Sequence record: SRR31156797_916
Direction: 5' to 3' (one strand)
Length of the DNA: 64,000 bases
The position numbers and the translations under genes are program-made. Positions 4,158 through 49,061 of this stretch are shown piece by piece (position 1 is the first letter of the stretch; every line of letters starts with the position of its first letter). The notes beneath the pieces were generated by a model that was given only the letters and a program-made list of their open reading frames with translations, did not search any database and was not told the origin of the DNA.

Positions 4158-5213
4158 TCATTCATCATTACTAAAGAGATAATCAACAGAAGTGTCTAAA
4201 TAATACGACCAGTTTTCCGGGAAACCATGCCCTTCCTCGGGGAAGACCACAAAACGATTTTTGATTCCATAACTATCCAGCTTATATCCCAATTTCTTTT
4301 GTTGCTGAATGGCCCAGTCGCTTTCACCACAAAGCATGGCAACCTTTAAGCCGCGTTCGGCAGATTGAATGAACAGGGTGCTGTCGGTATCCCTGGGGTA
4401 AACCGGAAACGACAAAAGCAGCCCGGAGGCCGGAATTGTATTGCCAAGCCCAAGAACCAAGGAACGATATCCGCCTGCCGAAGGTCCGGCAAGAATAACC
4501 TGCGCGGTATCTACTGAATATTTTGAAATAATATCCTCATAGCCTTGCCTGATTTTTTGCTGCCATCCTTCCATCACAAAACTTCTTAATCCACTCGCCC
4601 TGACTATGCTTCCCTGAAAGTAGGCCACGATAAATTCACTTTTTAGTTTTTCTGAAATGTAGCTGTATTGAATGTCAGGAATACTTCCCCAGCCGCCGTG
4701 CATGATCAGCATGAGCGGATATTTATTGGTTGGGATATAATTGTCGGGCAGTTGCACCATAAACTCAGCTTTGGAGCTTTTGCCAGCTTCATCTTTTAAT
4801 GCCTGGTTTTTTTCCAGAAAAGCCTCATATCCATCCAGCTTTTCCAATTCCGGAATATATGCAGGAAAAGGCCGGTCGCCACTTCTGATATAATAAAACA
4901 TCCCTTCCTGTTGGCCTTGTTTGAGGATATCGAAGCACTTAGTGTACTGTTCTAAGTTTGCGTAATGAACGGATAATTCCCAAACCATTAAATCGAACCT
5001 GATGTGTTCATCCGTAAACTTATCAAGCGCTTCTAAGCACAGCGCAATGGATCTTTGATCATCTGTCGAATTAATTTCTTCCAGCGTTTTTATTAATTCA
5101 ATAAATTCAGTATCCAAAGCTTTAAACGGTAATTCCTTAATTTCCTGCCCATAGGATGCCGCAATGCTTAAAGTGAAAAGGGCTAGCGTTAATATTGTTT
5201 GTAATTGTTTCAT
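4158..5213 (-). CDS. Secreted alpha/beta hydrolase (esterase-like) with helical N-terminal domain
   Basis: Signal peptide; YPLMLIMHGG, GPSAGG nucleophile elbow, GESD, EGHGF. Confidence 0.7.
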   Translation of the reverse strand: MKQLQTILTLALFTLSIAASYGQEIKELPFKALDTEFIELIKTLEEINSTDDQRSIALCLEALDKFTDEHIRFDLMVWELSVHYANLEQYTKCFDILKQGQQEGMFYYIRSGDRPFPAYIPELEKLDGYEAFLEKNQALKDEAGKSSKAEFMVQLPDNYIPTNKYPLMLIMHGGWGSIPDIQYSYISEKLKSEFIVAYFQGSIVRASGLRSFVMEGWQQKIRQGYEDIISKYSVDTAQVILAGPSAGGYRSLVLGLGNTIPASGLLLSFPVYPRDTDSTLFIQSAERGLKVAMLCGESDWAIQQQKKLGYKLDSYGIKNRFVVFPEEGHGFPENWSYYLDTSVDYLFSNDE

Positions 5214-5324
5214 TGTGTTTTTTTGTTTAAAAAATTATTGAACATTCATTCTTTGTCATGTCTTATAGTTCTATTTTTTTGATGGCATCTTCCACGTATC
5301 CAATTCTGTTGCAAAAATGATTGC

Positions 5325-6092
5325 CTAAGAAAAGTTTGATTTAACAGCACCCGCATCAAATGCCGGTGTAGTGTAATGATAATGGATTGGGAAAATGTAG
5401 TTGCCACCAATGGCTTCACGAACAAACCTTTCATTTAAAGAATCACCAATAAGGTAGTAGTGTTGAATAAAGGACAGATCGATGTCCCGATCAAGCAATC
5501 CAAGCGATTGGAATTCTTCAAAGGTAAATTGTTCAAAATCGGCATCTCCGGTTTGAAAAAGGGTAATTCCATTTACCGAAACAAGAAAGCCAATATTTAT
5601 AATTCTCGCATCCGGTCCGTGAGGAAGTAAAAACGTTTCAATGGTGATTCCCTGAATTTCTTTTTTATCCGATTGTTCTTTTGAAGGATTGAAGTCAATT
5701 CTTCGCTCATGAAAATGATCAATGGTATCACGTGCATTAAGCACATCAACAGTTTGTTTCGTAGAAGCAAAAATGGCCTTCGGATTGTTTTTCATATGTT
5801 GAAGCACCATGTTTGAATTAATGTGATCTCCATGGGCATGCGTAACCAAAATCAAATCCACATCATCGAAAGGTGCTTGTGCATTATTTAATTTTTCCTG
5901 AATGTGTTCCGGTAACTGATAGCCCCCTTCGAAACCTTTAAACAGGGCATCAATAAGAATTTTCTTGTTATCGACCTGAATTAAAAAGCCGGCATTTCCA
6001 ACATAGGTAACATTTACCTCATTGCTTTTTTGTGAAAAAATCGTTTTCGCCAAAAGCAAGAATGCAATTAGAATAATTATGGTTTGTTTCAT
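5325..6092 (-). CDS. Secreted MBL-fold metallohydrolase, probably truncated by a premature TAG
   Basis: GNAGFLI, THAHGDH, TGD, PIHY motifs. ATG at 6092 overlaps the upstream stop (ATGA). The frame continues past TAG 5325-5327 for 17 more codons to TAG 5271-5273. Confidence 0.8.
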   Translation of the reverse strand: MKQTIIILIAFLLLAKTIFSQKSNEVNVTYVGNAGFLIQVDNKKILIDALFKGFEGGYQLPEHIQEKLNNAQAPFDDVDLILVTHAHGDHINSNMVLQHMKNNPKAIFASTKQTVDVLNARDTIDHFHERRIDFNPSKEQSDKKEIQGITIETFLLPHGPDARIINIGFLVSVNGITLFQTGDADFEQFTFEEFQSLGLLDRDIDLSFIQHYYLIGDSLNERFVREAIGGNYIFPIHYHYTTPAFDAGAVKSNFS

Positions 6093-44533: not shown

Positions 44534-45589
44534 TTACATGTCGATGGATACATTTCCAAACGAACTTTCGATGCTTACAGTCGAATTAGAAGAACCATTG
44601 CCGATTTTTCCTCTGTAATATTTTTCATTGTTCTCAACAATGCGCTCTGAAAATGTCGCTGCATTTCCAGGGTAATCCAGGTCGCAAAATTCCATATCGG
44701 CTTCCAGGTTAAACGAAGCTCCATCCATAAATTCAAGAACTACCGATCCAAAACTGTTTTCGACACTAATTTCTGAAAAATCAGCGGCAATTTCCCTTGC
44801 TTTAAGACTACCATATTCTGTATCGGCAATCATCATTCTGCCCAGCCTGTTAATTTTAAACTCCGAAAATTTTGAGGAAAGCTCAATGCTTCCAACTTCG
44901 CCAATGGTAACATTGCCACCTTCGTTATCAATTTCGAGCACATCAAGCTTTGAGACTGTAACGGTTGAATAATCAGATTCGATGTTCAACTCAATGGCTT
45001 CATCAACGGTAAGGGTTGAGTAGGAGATTTCCAGGTCGCCACGACTCAGAAAATCAATTTTTGCCTCGCCAAAGCTAACTTCAATTTCGTTTGCTTCTGA
45101 TGTAAGTGCTTTAATTTCAACCGATCCGTATTGGATGGTGATGTTCGATTCACCTTCGGCTTTTTCGAAATAGGCGTTGCCAAACTGGTGATCAATGTCC
45201 AGCTTTACACTTTCCGGCATCATGATTTCGATGTCGATGGTAAGCCCCCTTTTACCATCACTAAATATCTTTTCGTTAAAATCACTCTCAACTGACACGC
45301 CATTCCGGTTGCCTTCCACCTTAATCTTTATTTTATCCAGAAGTTTGTTGGCTTTTTCAACGCTTTTAGCATCAACGGATGCAGTTACTTTCACAGAAAT
45401 GGCATTCTGGTTCCAGTTCTTACATTTTATATCGCCAAACTTGTGTTCTACAGAAAGTGTAGCATTTTTTGAGACGTCAAATTTTTCCTGTGCCAGTGTG
45501 CGTTCTACCTCATCGGCTTTTGCGATGCTTATTTGCAAAAGCAACACCGACATTAAAACGATTCCTAATATACTTTTATAATTTTTCAT
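44534..45589 (-). CDS. Secreted beta-solenoid protein (DUF4097/adhesin-like)
   Basis: Signal peptide; HKFGDI, HQFGNA, QYGSV, SFGE, SSFGNV repeats; ECF operon context. Confidence 0.65.
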   Translation of the reverse strand: MKNYKSILGIVLMSVLLLQISIAKADEVERTLAQEKFDVSKNATLSVEHKFGDIKCKNWNQNAISVKVTASVDAKSVEKANKLLDKIKIKVEGNRNGVSVESDFNEKIFSDGKRGLTIDIEIMMPESVKLDIDHQFGNAYFEKAEGESNITIQYGSVEIKALTSEANEIEVSFGEAKIDFLSRGDLEISYSTLTVDEAIELNIESDYSTVTVSKLDVLEIDNEGGNVTIGEVGSIELSSKFSEFKINRLGRMMIADTEYGSLKAREIAADFSEISVENSFGSVVLEFMDGASFNLEADMEFCDLDYPGNAATFSERIVENNEKYYRGKIGNGSSNSTVSIESSFGNVSIDM

Positions 45590-45601
45590 ATTCTTTCAGG
45601 G

Positions 45602-46186
45602 TTATGGATTTGTATTCAATTTAAAGTTTGGGTCCACGATACCAGTGTGTGCATTGGCTTCGTCAACCTGTTTGATGATGTTATCCATGATTTCAGCCTT
45701 TTTGCGTTTGTTGTTGATTATGGCGGCTTTCAGCCTTTGGTTATCAGGATATTTCGCGTATTCCTTTTCGATTGCTGCCAGGCTTGCATCAAGTTCATTA
45801 AGTTGTTTTTGCGCAAACTGCCTGATTCGATTAGCTTCTGTACTGTCCTTTGCCACCTGATCAATCTGATCTATCTTCTGTGCTGAAATGGCGTCGTAAT
45901 AGGCAAAAACATTTTCAAGTTCAGGGCCAAAGCTAATTTCGGTTACCTGGCTCATTACCGAATTATTAAAACTGTTGATTGATATAAACCGGAAGGCAAA
46001 ATAGCCCGATACGAGGATGATAATTACAGCAGCAAATTTTAAAATGTTGGGCCATTTGTCTTCTTTGATTTGCTTCTGTTTTACGTCGCCAAGTCGCTCA
46101 ACAAAACGATTTTTGTGACCTTCCGGTAATGGCTGGTCATCAAAAAAATCTTTGTTTTCTTCTATTTTCTTATCAAGAAACGACAT
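45602..46186 (-). CDS. Probable anti-sigma factor
   Basis: LPEGHKNRF...KFAAVIIIL single TM, helical C-terminus; directly downstream of the ECF sigma. Confidence 0.7.
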   Translation of the reverse strand: MSFLDKKIEENKDFFDDQPLPEGHKNRFVERLGDVKQKQIKEDKWPNILKFAAVIIILVSGYFAFRFISINSFNNSVMSQVTEISFGPELENVFAYYDAISAQKIDQIDQVAKDSTEANRIRQFAQKQLNELDASLAAIEKEYAKYPDNQRLKAAIINNKRKKAEIMDNIIKQVDEANAHTGIVDPNFKLNTNP

Positions 46187-46232
46187 GACATTTAAATTTA
46201 ATGGTAGTTTGTATTAATATTGGATTTATTAT

Positions 46233-46808
46233 TTACTTCCGGTCATTCATTATTATTCCAAGCAATTTCTGTTTAGCTCTGGAAAACCTGGTTCTCACAT
46301 TGCCGTTCGTTGTTTCGAGTATGCCGGCAATTTCCTCATGGTCGTAACCTTCAATCAGGTTAAGTGAAATAACGATCCTGTAATTTTCAGGCAATTTTTT
46401 AATGGCATTTCTGATTTCCTCCAACCTGCAAAAAACATTTTCCGAGTAAACTTTTTCGGAGTCGCTTTCATCAGGAACATCAGTTTTATCAGTATCAAGA
46501 CTCGTTGTTTGCTTTTTGCTTCGCAGGTGATTAATGGATTTGTTAATCACAATTCTTTTCAACCAGGAGCCAAATGAACCTTCACCTTTAAAAAACTGGA
46601 TTTTTTCAAACGCTTCAATGAACGATTCCTGCATGATATCTTCCGCTTCGGCTGTGTTGTCGACTATTCGATAACTTGTGTTGTACATGGCATGGCTGTA
46701 GAGATCGTAAATTTCCTCCTGAGCATGCCTGTCGTTTATCCTGCATGCATCAATTAATTCAGCATGCTCTATTTTATCAGCCGTATCGAATTTCATCATG
46801 ATTTTCAC
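46233..46808 (-). CDS. ECF (sigma-70 group 4) RNA polymerase sigma factor
   Basis: AEDIMQESF, FGSWLKRIVIN, LPENYR...EGYDHEEIA; start may be ATG 46799. Confidence 0.95.
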   Translation of the reverse strand: MKIMMKFDTADKIEHAELIDACRINDRHAQEEIYDLYSHAMYNTSYRIVDNTAEAEDIMQESFIEAFEKIQFFKGEGSFGSWLKRIVINKSINHLRSKKQTTSLDTDKTDVPDESDSEKVYSENVFCRLEEIRNAIKKLPENYRIVISLNLIEGYDHEEIAGILETTNGNVRTRFSRAKQKLLGIIMNDRK

Positions 46809-46814
46809 TTAAGT

Positions 46815-46840
46815 GACACATACAAATTTAATATGTTACA
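46815..46840 (-). promoter_or_regulatory. Putative autoregulatory ECF promoter
   Basis: TGTAAC-ATATTAAATTTGTATGTG-TC immediately upstream of the sigma start codon. Confidence 0.55.
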
Positions 46841-47068
46841 GTTTGGGTAATTTTTTTCTTTCAGTCATGATAACCGCGTAAATATATCAAACTTTTGCCA
46901 GTGCATCAGGCTGCTTCTCCCGATTGGCTATTGTTGCGGTGCGATTGATTTAAAAATCGATAAATTCTTCCGGTTGGAGTGGGGAATTTGGGAAATGAAG
47001 AATGGTCATGACAACCAAACTGTATCTCAACAGCAATGGGTGTAACGATAAACGTATTTCCGGGGTAT

Positions 47069-47108
47069 AAAAACAAAACGGGAACCTAATCTTGCGACTA
47101 AGTTCCCG
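47069..47108 (-). terminator. Intrinsic terminator closing the candidate ncRNA
   Basis: Minus strand CGGGAACTTAGTC-GCAA-GATTAGGTTCCCG followed by TTTTGTTTTT. Confidence 0.85.
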
Positions 47109-47652
47109 CTCACTTCCGGGTCACCGTGATGGCCCTTCAGTGCCAAGTTACAGTTATTGTGGTTGTTCGTTTCGGGCATCCCTTGCGGGGTACTTTTTTC
47201 GAACGAGACCTGAATCCTTTTCCTGTTTCCAGGTCAATTTTTCAGTTCCCAGCTTGTCAAGCGAACTTTCAACTATTGTGGTTCCGTAAAACCTATGTTG
47301 ATCGTCCAAATACCGATTCAGCGTCTTGCGGTGCTGCAGGGCTTACCTTGCGGCGAGGCCTTTTCGATATCCTGGTTCCTTGCAATCGTCTTTAGCATCA
47401 TTCACACGGGGTGAATTTTGTTAAAGCCGTCCCTGATAAAAACTTCCTTGCGGAGGTTCCGGTTTTGAAGCCGGGCCTGCAATCCGAAGATTGCCGGATT
47501 ATCAGAGCAATGTTTCAAAGAACTGGCGAACTTTCCGGACGACAGCCTAATGTCCTTCCTTTCGGTCCTCCCCGGGGCTTCCGGATTTGTTGTTGCCAAC
47601 CAATCCTTTCCTCCCGCTGGCTTTCCAAGCTAACCTTTTATCTCTCGCTTGG
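47070..47652 (-). ncRNA. Candidate large (~580 nt) highly structured non-coding RNA of unrecognised family
   Basis: No credible ORF; own promoter and terminator; six GCAA-capped, further GAAA-capped and one cUUCGg-capped hairpin plus nested multi-way junctions, all reading on the minus strand. Confidence 0.75.
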
Positions 47653-47657
47653 TGAAG

Positions 47658-47689
47658 CAAATATATGTGTATCACAGTGCGGAAAGCAA
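47658..47689 (-). promoter_or_regulatory. Sigma70 promoter of the candidate ncRNA
   Basis: TTG-N21-TATATTTG (-33/-7 Bacteroidota consensus); -7 element at 47658-47665. Confidence 0.7.
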
Positions 47690-47814
47690 GCTTTTTGTTG
47701 ATTCGTAATTCACATGTTATCAAGAATGATTATAAACAATTGTTGATAACTTCTGAAGGGGTTTGAGCTGTTAGCCTGGGGCGTGATAAAACGGATTTTT
47801 GAAATAACAAATTG

Positions 47815-48996
47815 TTAATAACCCTCCATAAGTGTTTCAAGGTGGTGATATTCAATGCCAAATCTTTTCTTTATTTCCGTGATTCTGGACGAATAAGTAT
47901 CCTTATCAACATTTCGTCCTGATTTGGTGGCTACAATCATTACATTTTTTGGCGTATGTTCAGTGGAAATAAACTCGATGGTTTTGATTTTGTAACCATA
48001 TTTCTCGAGGATAAGGCCCCTGATCCCGTCAGTTAGCAACTCTGCCTGTCGCTCAAGATAGATTCCATGTTTTAATATGTATTTCAAATCTGCTGTTGGA
48101 GTCATGGCTTTACGCACCTGTTTGTGGCAGCAGGGTGCAACGATAATATATTTTGCTCTGGCGCTGATTCCCTTAAAAATGGCATCATCTGTTGCCGTAT
48201 CGCAGGCGTGAAGCGCAATCAGCATGTCAATAACAGGTAATTTAAAATCTTTGATATTGCTTTTAACAAATTCAATTCCCTCAAATCGGCTGTTCTTCGA
48301 AATTGTGTTGCACTTATCAACAAGGTCATTCCGTATCTCTACCCCTTTAATGTGCACCTGGTATTTCTGGTTGTTGGAAAGGTAATCATACAAAGCAAAG
48401 GTTAAATATCCTTTTCCTGAACCCATGTCCACAACTGAGAACTCTTTTTTCGGAGGTTGGCGGGGTATGGTATTGTTTATTATTTCGATGAACTTGTTTA
48501 TCTGCCTGAACTTGCTGTTCATTGATGGTAACACTTTGAAATCCTGATCGGTTATCTCAAGTTCCTGCAGATATTTCTTGCCGTCCGGGTTGATCAGCCG
48601 TTGCTTTACACGGTCGTGTGAAACCGGTTTCAGCATTGGCTCAGATGGACACATGGTCTTTAATCTACTGTTCCCTTTTTTGTTGATCATAAGTTGGTAG
48701 TCGTGGTCGGTACAAAACAAGTTGGCCTGCAAAAACTGACTCCCTGTTAACGAGGCTAATATTTCCAATCCTTCGGAGGGGGCGTAATTTTTGGTAATGT
48801 CGTTGGTTTTGTTCCTGAAAATGCATGAAAGGAGATCATTTCCACCAATAACTAAAGGCCTGGCAAAAACGTTTCGCAATTCGGAATTTTTTGAAATCGC
48901 TTTTCCGAGCGTACATTTAACAAAAGTTTTTGCTAAAACACTTGTCTTGAAAATTTCGAAAAACCTTTGGGTATCCTGTGAAACTGCTTTTTCCAT
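47815..48996 (-). CDS. Class I SAM-dependent methyltransferase (Methyltransf_32-like)
   Basis: KFRQINKF, VDMGSGKGYLTF, ALHACDTATD, APCCH, EHTPKN. Confidence 0.88.
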   Translation of the reverse strand: MEKAVSQDTQRFFEIFKTSVLAKTFVKCTLGKAISKNSELRNVFARPLVIGGNDLLSCIFRNKTNDITKNYAPSEGLEILASLTGSQFLQANLFCTDHDYQLMINKKGNSRLKTMCPSEPMLKPVSHDRVKQRLINPDGKKYLQELEITDQDFKVLPSMNSKFRQINKFIEIINNTIPRQPPKKEFSVVDMGSGKGYLTFALYDYLSNNQKYQVHIKGVEIRNDLVDKCNTISKNSRFEGIEFVKSNIKDFKLPVIDMLIALHACDTATDDAIFKGISARAKYIIVAPCCHKQVRKAMTPTADLKYILKHGIYLERQAELLTDGIRGLILEKYGYKIKTIEFISTEHTPKNVMIVATKSGRNVDKDTYSSRITEIKKRFGIEYHHLETLMEGY

Positions 48997-49061
48997 AGAT
49001 CAGGCTGCAAAAGTAACCATTAATCAATTCCATTAAATTTGCATTCATGTAACATCAGAGT

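Follow-up and report, generated by a model that had tools for sequence, protein, structure and literature searches.

A structured RNA gene between a methyltransferase and an ECF sigma gene

The question raised by the locus described here is what occupies a gap of about 1 kb between a Methyltransf_32/TRM13-like gene (47815-48996, minus strand) and an extracytoplasmic function (ECF) sigma gene (46233-46808, minus strand) in SRR31156797_916, a stretch of 64,000 nucleotides (nt) that was analysed as a whole and is called the window below. Base composition sets the gap apart, with a G+C fraction of 0.465-0.515 over 47000-47699 versus 0.335-0.40 in both flanks, and no long or conserved open reading frame (ORF) was found in the unit. 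Our analysis shows, with high confidence, that the gap holds the gene of a structured non-coding RNA (ncRNA) on the minus strand (47067-47654, about 588 nt, limits inferred from promoter and terminator), with its own promoter and terminator and belonging to a family absent from Rfam 15. A first-pass annotation of the window, made from a single sequence, had proposed a GC-richer, non-coding, minus-strand unit in this gap; base composition, the lack of a conserved ORF and the homologues confirm it. The case rests on comparative data and not on folding energy, because the z-score of the single-sequence fold is modest and the minus strand (-2.78) does no better than the plus strand (-3.45).

Members of the family combine a constant end-clamp core with a lineage-specific body of GNRA- and UUCG-capped hairpins arranged in multiway junctions; P1, the first helix of the clamp, has a UNCG-capped hairpin and the terminator stacked beside it. 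In the window the whole RNA and its body are located as follows.

47067-47654, minus strand: the RNA, with inferred start at C47654/A47653 and its end in the U tract of the terminator, defined by full-length homologues, the 29-sequence alignment A3 and covariation
47165-47631, minus strand: variable multibranched body of GNRA- and UNCG-capped hairpins (helices 3-21), lineage-specific in length and content

Covariation in the long forms

Alignment A3 comprises 29 long forms (mean column identity 58%) and yields a consensus of 122 base pairs in 24 helices. Pairing is found in 86.7% of cells versus 74.0% after shuffling, 90 of the 122 pairs are changed on both sides versus 66.4, and the covariation score is 0.431 versus 0.220, with slid-partner controls at 0.063-0.133. 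These values are reached in 0 of 500 shuffles, a count that is a strong indication and not a probability, because the sequences are related and the structure was drawn from the same alignment. The covariation check that the first-pass annotation had proposed thus returned compensatory change at 90 pairs. A conserved ORF, which it had named as a sign against an ncRNA, is missing: across the 29 long forms the longest ORFs, of 51-151 amino acids (aa), vary as to strand, frame and position, column entropy in these forms displays no codon periodicity, and 114 of 689 gap runs in the long-form alignment are divisible by 3.

The hairpins and long-range helices read earlier from the single sequence were recovered in part. 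Those at 47583-47606, 47441-47458, 47176-47193 and 47222-47233, together with the terminator, are present in the 29-sequence consensus. The hairpins at 47340-47360 and 47319-47336 are not, as they lie in an insert limited to the window and three close relatives, and the cUUCGg hairpin at 47479-47494 falls in a badly aligned variable stretch and is likewise missing; all three are formed in the minimum free energy fold of the window's own sequence. Among the long-range helices, 47307-47316/47364-47374 (8 pairs) and 47165-47169/47200-47204 (4 pairs) belong to the consensus; 47431-47439/47499-47507 and 47390-47397/47419-47426 do not, the former seeming conserved by eye. Pseudoknots, sought by blind pairwise covariation, were swamped by phylogenetic noise, and the sole stacked candidate (A3 columns 41-43/140-142) competes with helix 5.

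A constant core clamps the two ends

All members share a 5' core, YCARR-YGAGRGAUAAAA-GRYY, and a 3' core, RRYC-ANAAUAACNGUAR-YYUGR, in which ANAAUAACNGUAR is the consensus of the 3' loop strand; the 3' core is followed by a 3-bp helix enclosing a UNCG-capped hairpin and then by the terminator. The elements of the core in the window are the following.

47648-47652, minus strand: 5' strand of helix 1 (P1), CCAAG, pairing with 47143-47147 about 500 nt away
47143-47147, minus strand: 3' strand of P1, CUUGG, pairing with 47648-47652
47636-47647, minus strand: 5' loop strand CGAGAGAUAAAA, family consensus YGAGRGAUAAAA, with invariant or nearly invariant columns in alignments A2, A3 and A4
47632-47635, minus strand: 5' strand of helix 2 (P2), GGUU, pairing with 47161-47164
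47148-47164, minus strand: 3' strand of P2, AACC (47161-47164), and 3' loop strand ACAAUAACUGUAA (47148-47160), with invariant columns in alignments A3, A4 and A6
47111-47142, minus strand: 3' core hairpin, made of a 3-bp CAC/GUG helix straight after P1, an internal loop, a 7-bp stem and a UACG-type loop

P1 pairs nucleotides 3-7 of the RNA with a site 260-560 nt downstream, about 100 nt from the 3' end. Its five positions are all paired in 50 of 50 units, and three of them covary (CG27/UA16/UG7, AU24/GC26 and GC45/AU5). The first three positions of P2 are paired in 49-50 of the 50 units, with covariation as GC21/AU16/GU13 and UA16/CG30/UG3. Between the two helices lies an internal loop of 12 x 13 nt, the invariant part of which is GAGRGAUAAAA / AAUAACNGUA; the 5' loop strand is found in divergent class-level members too. 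Going by general rules for such motifs, the G-A opposite G-U-A beside P1 may form a loop-E or bulged-G-like motif. The 3' core hairpin, whose loop is CACG in the window, is kept in all size classes, and its helices 22 and 23 are paired in 100% and 91.6% of cells with 2/3 and 6/7 pairs changed on both sides. The two closing helices P1 (47652-47648/47147-47143) and P2 (47635-47632/47164-47161), as well as the palindrome at 47730-47749 that is described below, had escaped the first-pass annotation.

Promoter, upstream palindrome and terminator

The transcription signals in the window are listed here in the direction of transcription.

47730-47749, minus strand: upstream palindrome TTATCAACAATTGTTTATAA, located roughly between -95 and -76 relative to the inferred start
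47686-47729, minus strand: block ahead of the promoter box, in which a pair of TGT(T/G) repeats spaced by about 11 bp is followed by an A-tract and a CTTG(A)C -33/-35-like element
47658-47665, minus strand: -7 promoter box TATATTTG, which fits TAnnTTTG, the Bacteroidetes sigma-A type
47067-47110, minus strand: intrinsic terminator and U tract, with stem GCGGGAACUUAGUC/GAUUAGGUUCCCGU and loop GCAA

In each of the 50 DNA-derived units a TAnnTTTG box stops 5-6 nt short of P1, and PMC9723704 gives this motif as the sigma-A -7 consensus in Flavobacterium. A scan for sigma-70 promoters is inapplicable to the phylum and its matches stayed at chance level. In 47 units, drawn from all size classes and clades, the 95 nt that precede the -7 box can be aligned gap-free. 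In this region the palindrome is followed, toward the RNA, by the two TGT(T/G) repeats, the A-tract and CTTGAC, the CTTG of the -33/-35-like element lying at 47690-47687 in the window; the consensus of the block, TGTt.a.Aa..TGTg.Ata...Aaa..aaAAAAaaCTTGaCTTc, is also invariant in alignment A1. At 47111-47076 on the minus strand, a terminator scan detected a stem of 16 pairs accompanied by a U tract. The terminator corresponds to consensus helix 24, with 96.3% of cells paired and 6 of 14 pairs covarying, and the sequence of its stem is kept within a clade and different in distant members. An own promoter and a strong terminator, as read earlier from the single sequence, are thereby borne out.

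Among 47 homologous promoters, 45 carry the 20-bp palindrome (up to 5 substitutions allowed), recovered across them in the form TTATNAACAATTGTTRATAA, with its end 74-76 nt ahead of the inferred start. The complete genome G386 has a single exact copy of its 14-mer core, located at the RNA's own promoter, and a further match in G002 was dismissed since it lies inside a 691-aa ORF. Judging from its sequence and placement, the palindrome is presumably the site of a dedicated dimeric regulator.

Relatives in many Bacteroidia and a variable gene neighbourhood

The neighbouring methyltransferase protein, used as a query, returned 80 loci, the closest being metagenome-assembled genomes (MAGs) labelled Lentimicrobiaceae, and five loci from this search carry the RNA downstream of that gene in the same orientation. 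By BLAST the RNA was found in 13 of the 23 genomes of the window's family. A search pattern based on the conserved 3' loop strand and the 3' strand of P2 (47148-47164) gave 42 loci in metagenome contigs, 41 of which were confirmed by profile search. The same pattern was found in 14 of 401 genomes of the order (0 for the reversed control) and, in a phylum sample of 301 genomes, in G001 alone, the sample's centre genome; it had no matches in viral contigs. A covariance model built from the 97-nt 3' core is more sensitive than the pattern and detected the RNA in 18 of the family's 23 genomes; in samples of 151 genomes each, it was positive in 36 for the order and in 14 for the class. Among 11 class-level loci that were inspected, six display both cores by pattern and L190 is a false match to the terminator only. 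In total, 50 distinct DNA-encoded relatives were gathered for the unit counts, a collection of homologues of the kind suggested in the first-pass annotation. The family has members in many Bacteroidia and is much wider and more variable in size than the reading of a single sequence could show.

The gene that follows the RNA varies by lineage (ECF sigma, NikR, arginine deiminase, cyclase, HD or none), and short forms are convergent with dnaG in 16 loci. In the order sample of 151 genomes the RNA is present in 36 and a full-length methyltransferase orthologue (E<1e-30) in 30; both occur together in 7, where 7.2 are expected, and a functional link between RNA and methyltransferase was therefore dropped in favour of synteny only. 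Six loci (L103, L105, L113, L114, L129 and L092) carry upstream of the RNA a 75-79-aa C-terminal Methyltransf_32 remnant (residues ~309-387); there the methyltransferase gene has decayed, with RNA and promoter intact. In L003 (genome G003, 5162-5593) the RNA downstream of the methyltransferase gene can be recognised over its final ~170 nt only; palindrome and CTTG element persist upstream, the TAnnTTTG box and the 5' core are missing, and the RNA looks like a truncated or decayed copy. L005 comes from a MAG (G004) deposited as 'Clostridia bacterium', which has the methyltransferase-RNA pair and was grouped in the family of the Lentimicrobiaceae genome G001; the MAG was probably mislabelled on deposition.

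The RNA is mostly single copy per genome. Short forms stand as tandem copies with a 484-nt period in L106 (2757-3134 and 3241-3618), L136 and L140, each copy with its own palindrome, promoter and terminator, and a 350-nt contig of run X2 links a 3' core to a following 5' core as in such copies. Two matches to the 3'-core model per genome were seen in G743, G138, G056, G100, G149 and G758; those in G743 (C84, 3677-3764 and 5398-5485) score equally and lie 1.7 kb apart on one strand, and those in G138 are on two contigs, C1 and C2. A second model match in G023 was rejected as a look-alike terminator alone.

Beyond the 3' end of the RNA in the window (44534-46808), come the ECF sigma gene and then two ORFs of 194 and 351 aa that match nothing in Pfam; the set may represent an anti-sigma gene with a partner, and it is not kept beside the RNA in other lineages.

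Size classes and giant forms

DNA-encoded forms measure about 290 to about 650 nt overall. From the 5' core to the terminator their bodies fall at 259-290, 331-334, 381 and 493-556 nt, and contigs reach up to ~2290 nt; other sequence takes the place of the body in short forms, and ~2 kb does so in giant forms. The purine content of short forms is high (A 0.34, G 0.31, U 0.12). The smallest divergent members, at 303-349 nt, still have a multibranched fold. L124 was rejected as a 2.4-kb genomic giant form, being a chance pattern match inside protein-coding genes, and forms of ~900 nt in L155 and L167 were rejected as spurious 5'-motif matches.

Seven contigs of 1871-2303 nt consist of the RNA alone, beginning in the 5' core at G(G)GAUAAAAGG and ending in the terminator. 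Their starts lie within 6 nt of each other inside the 5' loop strand, and from these ends we infer that the giant contigs are assembled transcripts. The seven giant forms (66% column identity) share 508 pairs, of which 173 are changed on both sides versus 85.4 after shuffling (0/500). CUUCGG occurs 9.9 times per giant form (z=38), and both CGCAAG and CUUCGG are enriched over dinucleotide shuffles. The giant form L117 comprises four diverged repeats with a period of ~316 nt and has no sense ORF above 82 aa.

Known RNA families and candidate partner proteins

A search of 46000-49000 with the 4227 models of Rfam 15 (including OLE, ROOL, GOLLD, HEARO, raiA, group I/II introns, riboswitches, Bacteroidales-1 and Flavo-1) gave 0 matches at E<=1, which answers the covariance-model check proposed earlier. 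At gathering score the entire 64-kb window (1-64000) had 0 matches, and no tRNA, rRNA or riboswitch was recognised in it by Rfam. Nor were there matches on 8 giant-form contigs (E<=0.1), on 14 divergent loci (E<=0.01) or on the RNA itself in 7 short-form loci. About 130 nt upstream of the short-form RNA in L152, at 1063-1142, an AT-rich perfect hairpin has chance-level matches to microRNA models, far under gathering scores. The RNA is not described in the literature searched, a search that did not extend to unnamed candidates in the supplementary tables of motif-discovery papers.

Several assignments were rejected. A type A RNase P RNA was set aside since canonical RNase P RNA (RF00010) is found at other loci in 5 of 5 carrier genomes with 215-234 bits and the window unit has no match; a tmRNA or tRNA-like RNA was set aside since ARAGORN returned no tRNA or tmRNA in 46000-49000 and Rfam no tmRNA, and on both points we agree with the first-pass annotation. 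A mobile-element guide RNA (omega RNA, bridge RNA, retron msr or HEARO) was rejected, as Pfam scans of recurrent flanking genes revealed no TnpB, IscB, IS110 or reverse transcriptase (RT) neighbours, the RNA is mostly single copy and viral contigs gave 0 matches. A riboswitch or cis-regulatory leader was rejected as well, the gene following the RNA being different among homologues. The RNA is larger than 300 nt, non-coding and endowed with a covarying multi-junction fold and its own signals, and it can be described as a large ornate ncRNA in the sense of a kind, not of a homologous family. The earlier proposal of a large, ornate, independently transcribed ncRNA, possibly of a new class, is supported by the empty Rfam 15 search, covariation, own signals and varying neighbours.

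Candidate partners were looked for in the five carrier genomes. CsrA (PF02599) was found in 0/5, with positive controls in E. coli, B. subtilis and T. maritima, and Ro/TROVE (PF05731) in 0/5, with positive controls in D. radiodurans and B. thetaiotaomicron; RRM proteins are present in 4/5, G386 having the RNA without RRM. All three were dropped as partners, the first two being absent and RRM inconsistent. GGA is enriched about 1.25-fold (GGA/GGAA z ~7-10) and GGAGG is not (z -1.3, 1.7 and -2.9), which led us to drop an anti-Shine-Dalgarno or SD-like (Shine-Dalgarno-like) sponge. Beyond generic GNRA/UNCG tetraloops, no loop motif common to the clades was found. The 6S models RF00013 and RF01685 are over cut-off in 0/5 carrier genomes each and none matches in the window, an absence that says little because RF00013 also misses the Bacteroides thetaiotaomicron control. 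Besides, the 24 helices in multiway junctions do not make the rod-like 6S fold of ~180-200 nt.

Presence in RNA libraries

Part of the sequence is held by 16 runs from 10 studies (maximum share 0.41), 11 of which are recorded as RNA. RNA run X7 has a 541-nt contig on 47132-47668, and contigs from runs X1 and X2 (458 and 376 nt) fall within the gene over their whole length. These contigs suggest that the RNA gene is transcribed. The first-pass annotation had called the RNA abundant; presence in contigs of libraries recorded as RNA lends this claim weak support. The flanking methyltransferase and ECF genes have almost no contig cover in the runs, which was not taken to indicate differential expression, since an uncovered part is no evidence.

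A proposed stable scaffold as the best explanation

Taken as a whole, the locus is best explained by a new RNA gene with an end-clamp core whose product would act as a stable scaffold or ribonucleoprotein (RNP) RNA, a reading to which we give a probability of roughly 0.55. Its mechanism can be sketched more tentatively, and at somewhat less than even odds, as that of a scaffold or RNP RNA with a clamp handle and an expandable body under the control of the palindrome. With both ends buried in the clamp, a very stable molecule would accumulate. A conserved partner, most probably a protein, would hold the molecule by its invariant clamp, and the expandable body would lend architecture or multivalency as a scaffold, be it in an RNP or through self-association of the RNA. 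Synthesis of the RNA would be controlled by a dimeric DNA-binding protein at the upstream palindrome.

Several observations weigh against the scaffold reading. No partner protein was found, CsrA and Ro/TROVE being absent in 5/5 carrier genomes and RRM lacking in G386. A DNA locus for a giant form was not found in any collection searched, and the 5' strand of P1 is missing from the giant contigs. The extreme size variation argues against a single precise three-dimensional machine and, alone, is no pointer to a scaffold. The structures were derived from the same alignments that test them, which flatters the comparison with the slid controls, and some consensus helices are weak (66-73% of cells paired). 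The adjacent methyltransferase does not co-occur with the RNA beyond the 7.2 genomes expected, as 7 were found. The X7 contig extends 14 nt upstream of the inferred start; the run data are contigs without ends, strand or level, and DNA can occur in RNA libraries.

Alternative explanations

A body built for RNA-only self-assembly, which would form symmetric homo-oligomers through loop-receptor or kissing contacts in the manner of ROOL, GOLLD and OLE, would account for the dense GNRA- and UNCG-capped hairpins and multiway junctions and for a long form of ~590 nt, near ROOL and OLE in size. These three RNAs form homo-oligomers according to PMC12286853. One closed symmetric assembly fits ill with a roughly eight-fold range of body length and with body sequence that is unconserved between clades, and Rfam detects no match to ROOL, GOLLD or OLE; we regard this explanation as unlikely. 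A protein sponge, with repeated hairpins or purine-rich linkers titrating away an RNA-binding protein to a capacity given by the module number, draws on another precedent. CsrB and RsmZ titrate CsrA, and CsrB has a strong promoter and terminator. The strong promoter and terminator found here, the four diverged ~316-nt modules of giant forms, the tandem gene copies of some lineages and the moderate enrichment of GGA/GGAA are all in its favour; yet CsrA is absent from 5/5 genomes, no one short loop motif was seen to recur across clades, GGAGG is not enriched and the most conserved element is a unique end clamp rather than a repeat. A sponge is accordingly held to be quite improbable. The 12 x 13 nt internal loop flanked by end-joining helices brings to mind a 6S analogue, in which the P1-loop-P2 region would mimic an open promoter and sequester the RNA polymerase holoenzyme. 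The sequence is present in RNA libraries and RF00013/RF01685 find no 6S RNA in the five carrier genomes, but RF00013 fails on the Bacteroides thetaiotaomicron control as well. The smallest forms are multibranched, P1 has 5 bp, the body reaches up to 2 kb, and the RNA is patchy (36/151 genomes of the order) versus the near-universal 6S, all of which makes such an analogue very unlikely.

We see little chance that the RNA is a ribozyme or other catalytic RNA with the invariant core as its active site. Its loop strands are nearly invariant across the class, and the common start of the seven RNA-only contigs in the 5' loop strand could mark a cleavage site; on the other hand, the first 10-15 nt are commonly lost in assembled transcripts, there is no sign of a substrate or processing partner, a precise fold would be required of the body, which is not conserved, and the gene is unlinked to mobile elements or to an RNA-processing context. 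That the unit is no independent RNA at all, being a cis-leader, a 3' untranslated region of the methyltransferase messenger, decayed coding or mobile sequence or a divergent known family, is largely refuted. In the window's clade the RNA directly follows the methyltransferase gene on the same strand and the X7 contig passes upstream of the inferred start. Against this stand a promoter in 50/50 units and a palindrome in 45/47, a terminator that precedes a different gene in each lineage, short forms located beside dnaG and not beside the methyltransferase, no co-occurrence with the methyltransferase, no conserved ORF, RNase P RNA elsewhere in 5/5 genomes and no Rfam or ARAGORN matches.

Extending the scaffold reading, one may speculate, with the odds against it, that the family is a Bacteroidia-wide RNA class in which the end clamp goes with a palindrome-binding regulator and the body has grown by module duplication to at least 2.3 kb in some uncultured lineages, as a self-organising RNA or RNP architecture and not as a regulator of specific mRNAs. 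If a body of at least 2.3 kb is true, this would be the largest structured non-ribosomal RNA known in bacteria, and if the 2-kb forms are genuine cellular RNAs, the known size range of structured bacterial ncRNAs is extended.

Comparison with known systems

Large, highly structured bacterial RNAs of unassigned function are rare (OLE, ROOL, GOLLD and few others), and each has opened new biology or RNA architecture. The present family occurs in roughly one in four Bacteroidales species sampled, and also elsewhere in the Bacteroidia, yet is absent from Rfam 15, and its combination of an invariant core, length variants and a dedicated palindrome is unusual. The small invariant core is amenable to mutation and pull-down, the natural series of lengths from ~290 nt to 2.3 kb on one core offers a way to ask what an 'ornate' body is for, and the strictly positioned promoter palindrome is a handle on regulation.

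The RNA resembles type A RNase P RNA (RF00010) in the size of its short forms, its single copy and a GGAAAG-like stretch; it differs in that canonical RNase P RNA is encoded at other loci in 5/5 genomes and the window unit is unmatched. With 6S RNA it shares ends joined by a closing helix beside a large internal loop and, presumably, abundance and stability, while it is multibranched and not rod-like, much larger, patchily distributed and without a model match. With CsrB and RsmZ it has in common its own promoter and terminator, a variable number of repeated structural modules and a size that varies between species; CsrA is absent, no clade-wide loop motif is seen and the best-conserved element is the unique core instead of the repeats. 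As in Y RNA, a conserved helix of the 5' and 3' ends would be the handle and the rest of the molecule is variable, whereas no TROVE/Ro gene is found in 5/5 genomes, the RNA is three- to twenty-fold larger and no tRNA-like module was found.

OLE, ROOL and GOLLD are alike in their several hundred nucleotides, GNRA hairpins, multiway junctions, strong covariation, independent transcription (presumed in the present case) and a function that is not evident from context. In contrast to them, the RNA has no covariance-model match, is found in Bacteroidia and not in Bacillota or phages, is without associated protein genes such as oapA-C and does not occur in viral contigs. To our knowledge, an eight-fold size variation around a constant end-clamp core has not been reported for any of the three. 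The RNA defines a family without detectable relation to any catalogued one and, as a descriptive kind, takes its place beside the known large ornate RNAs.

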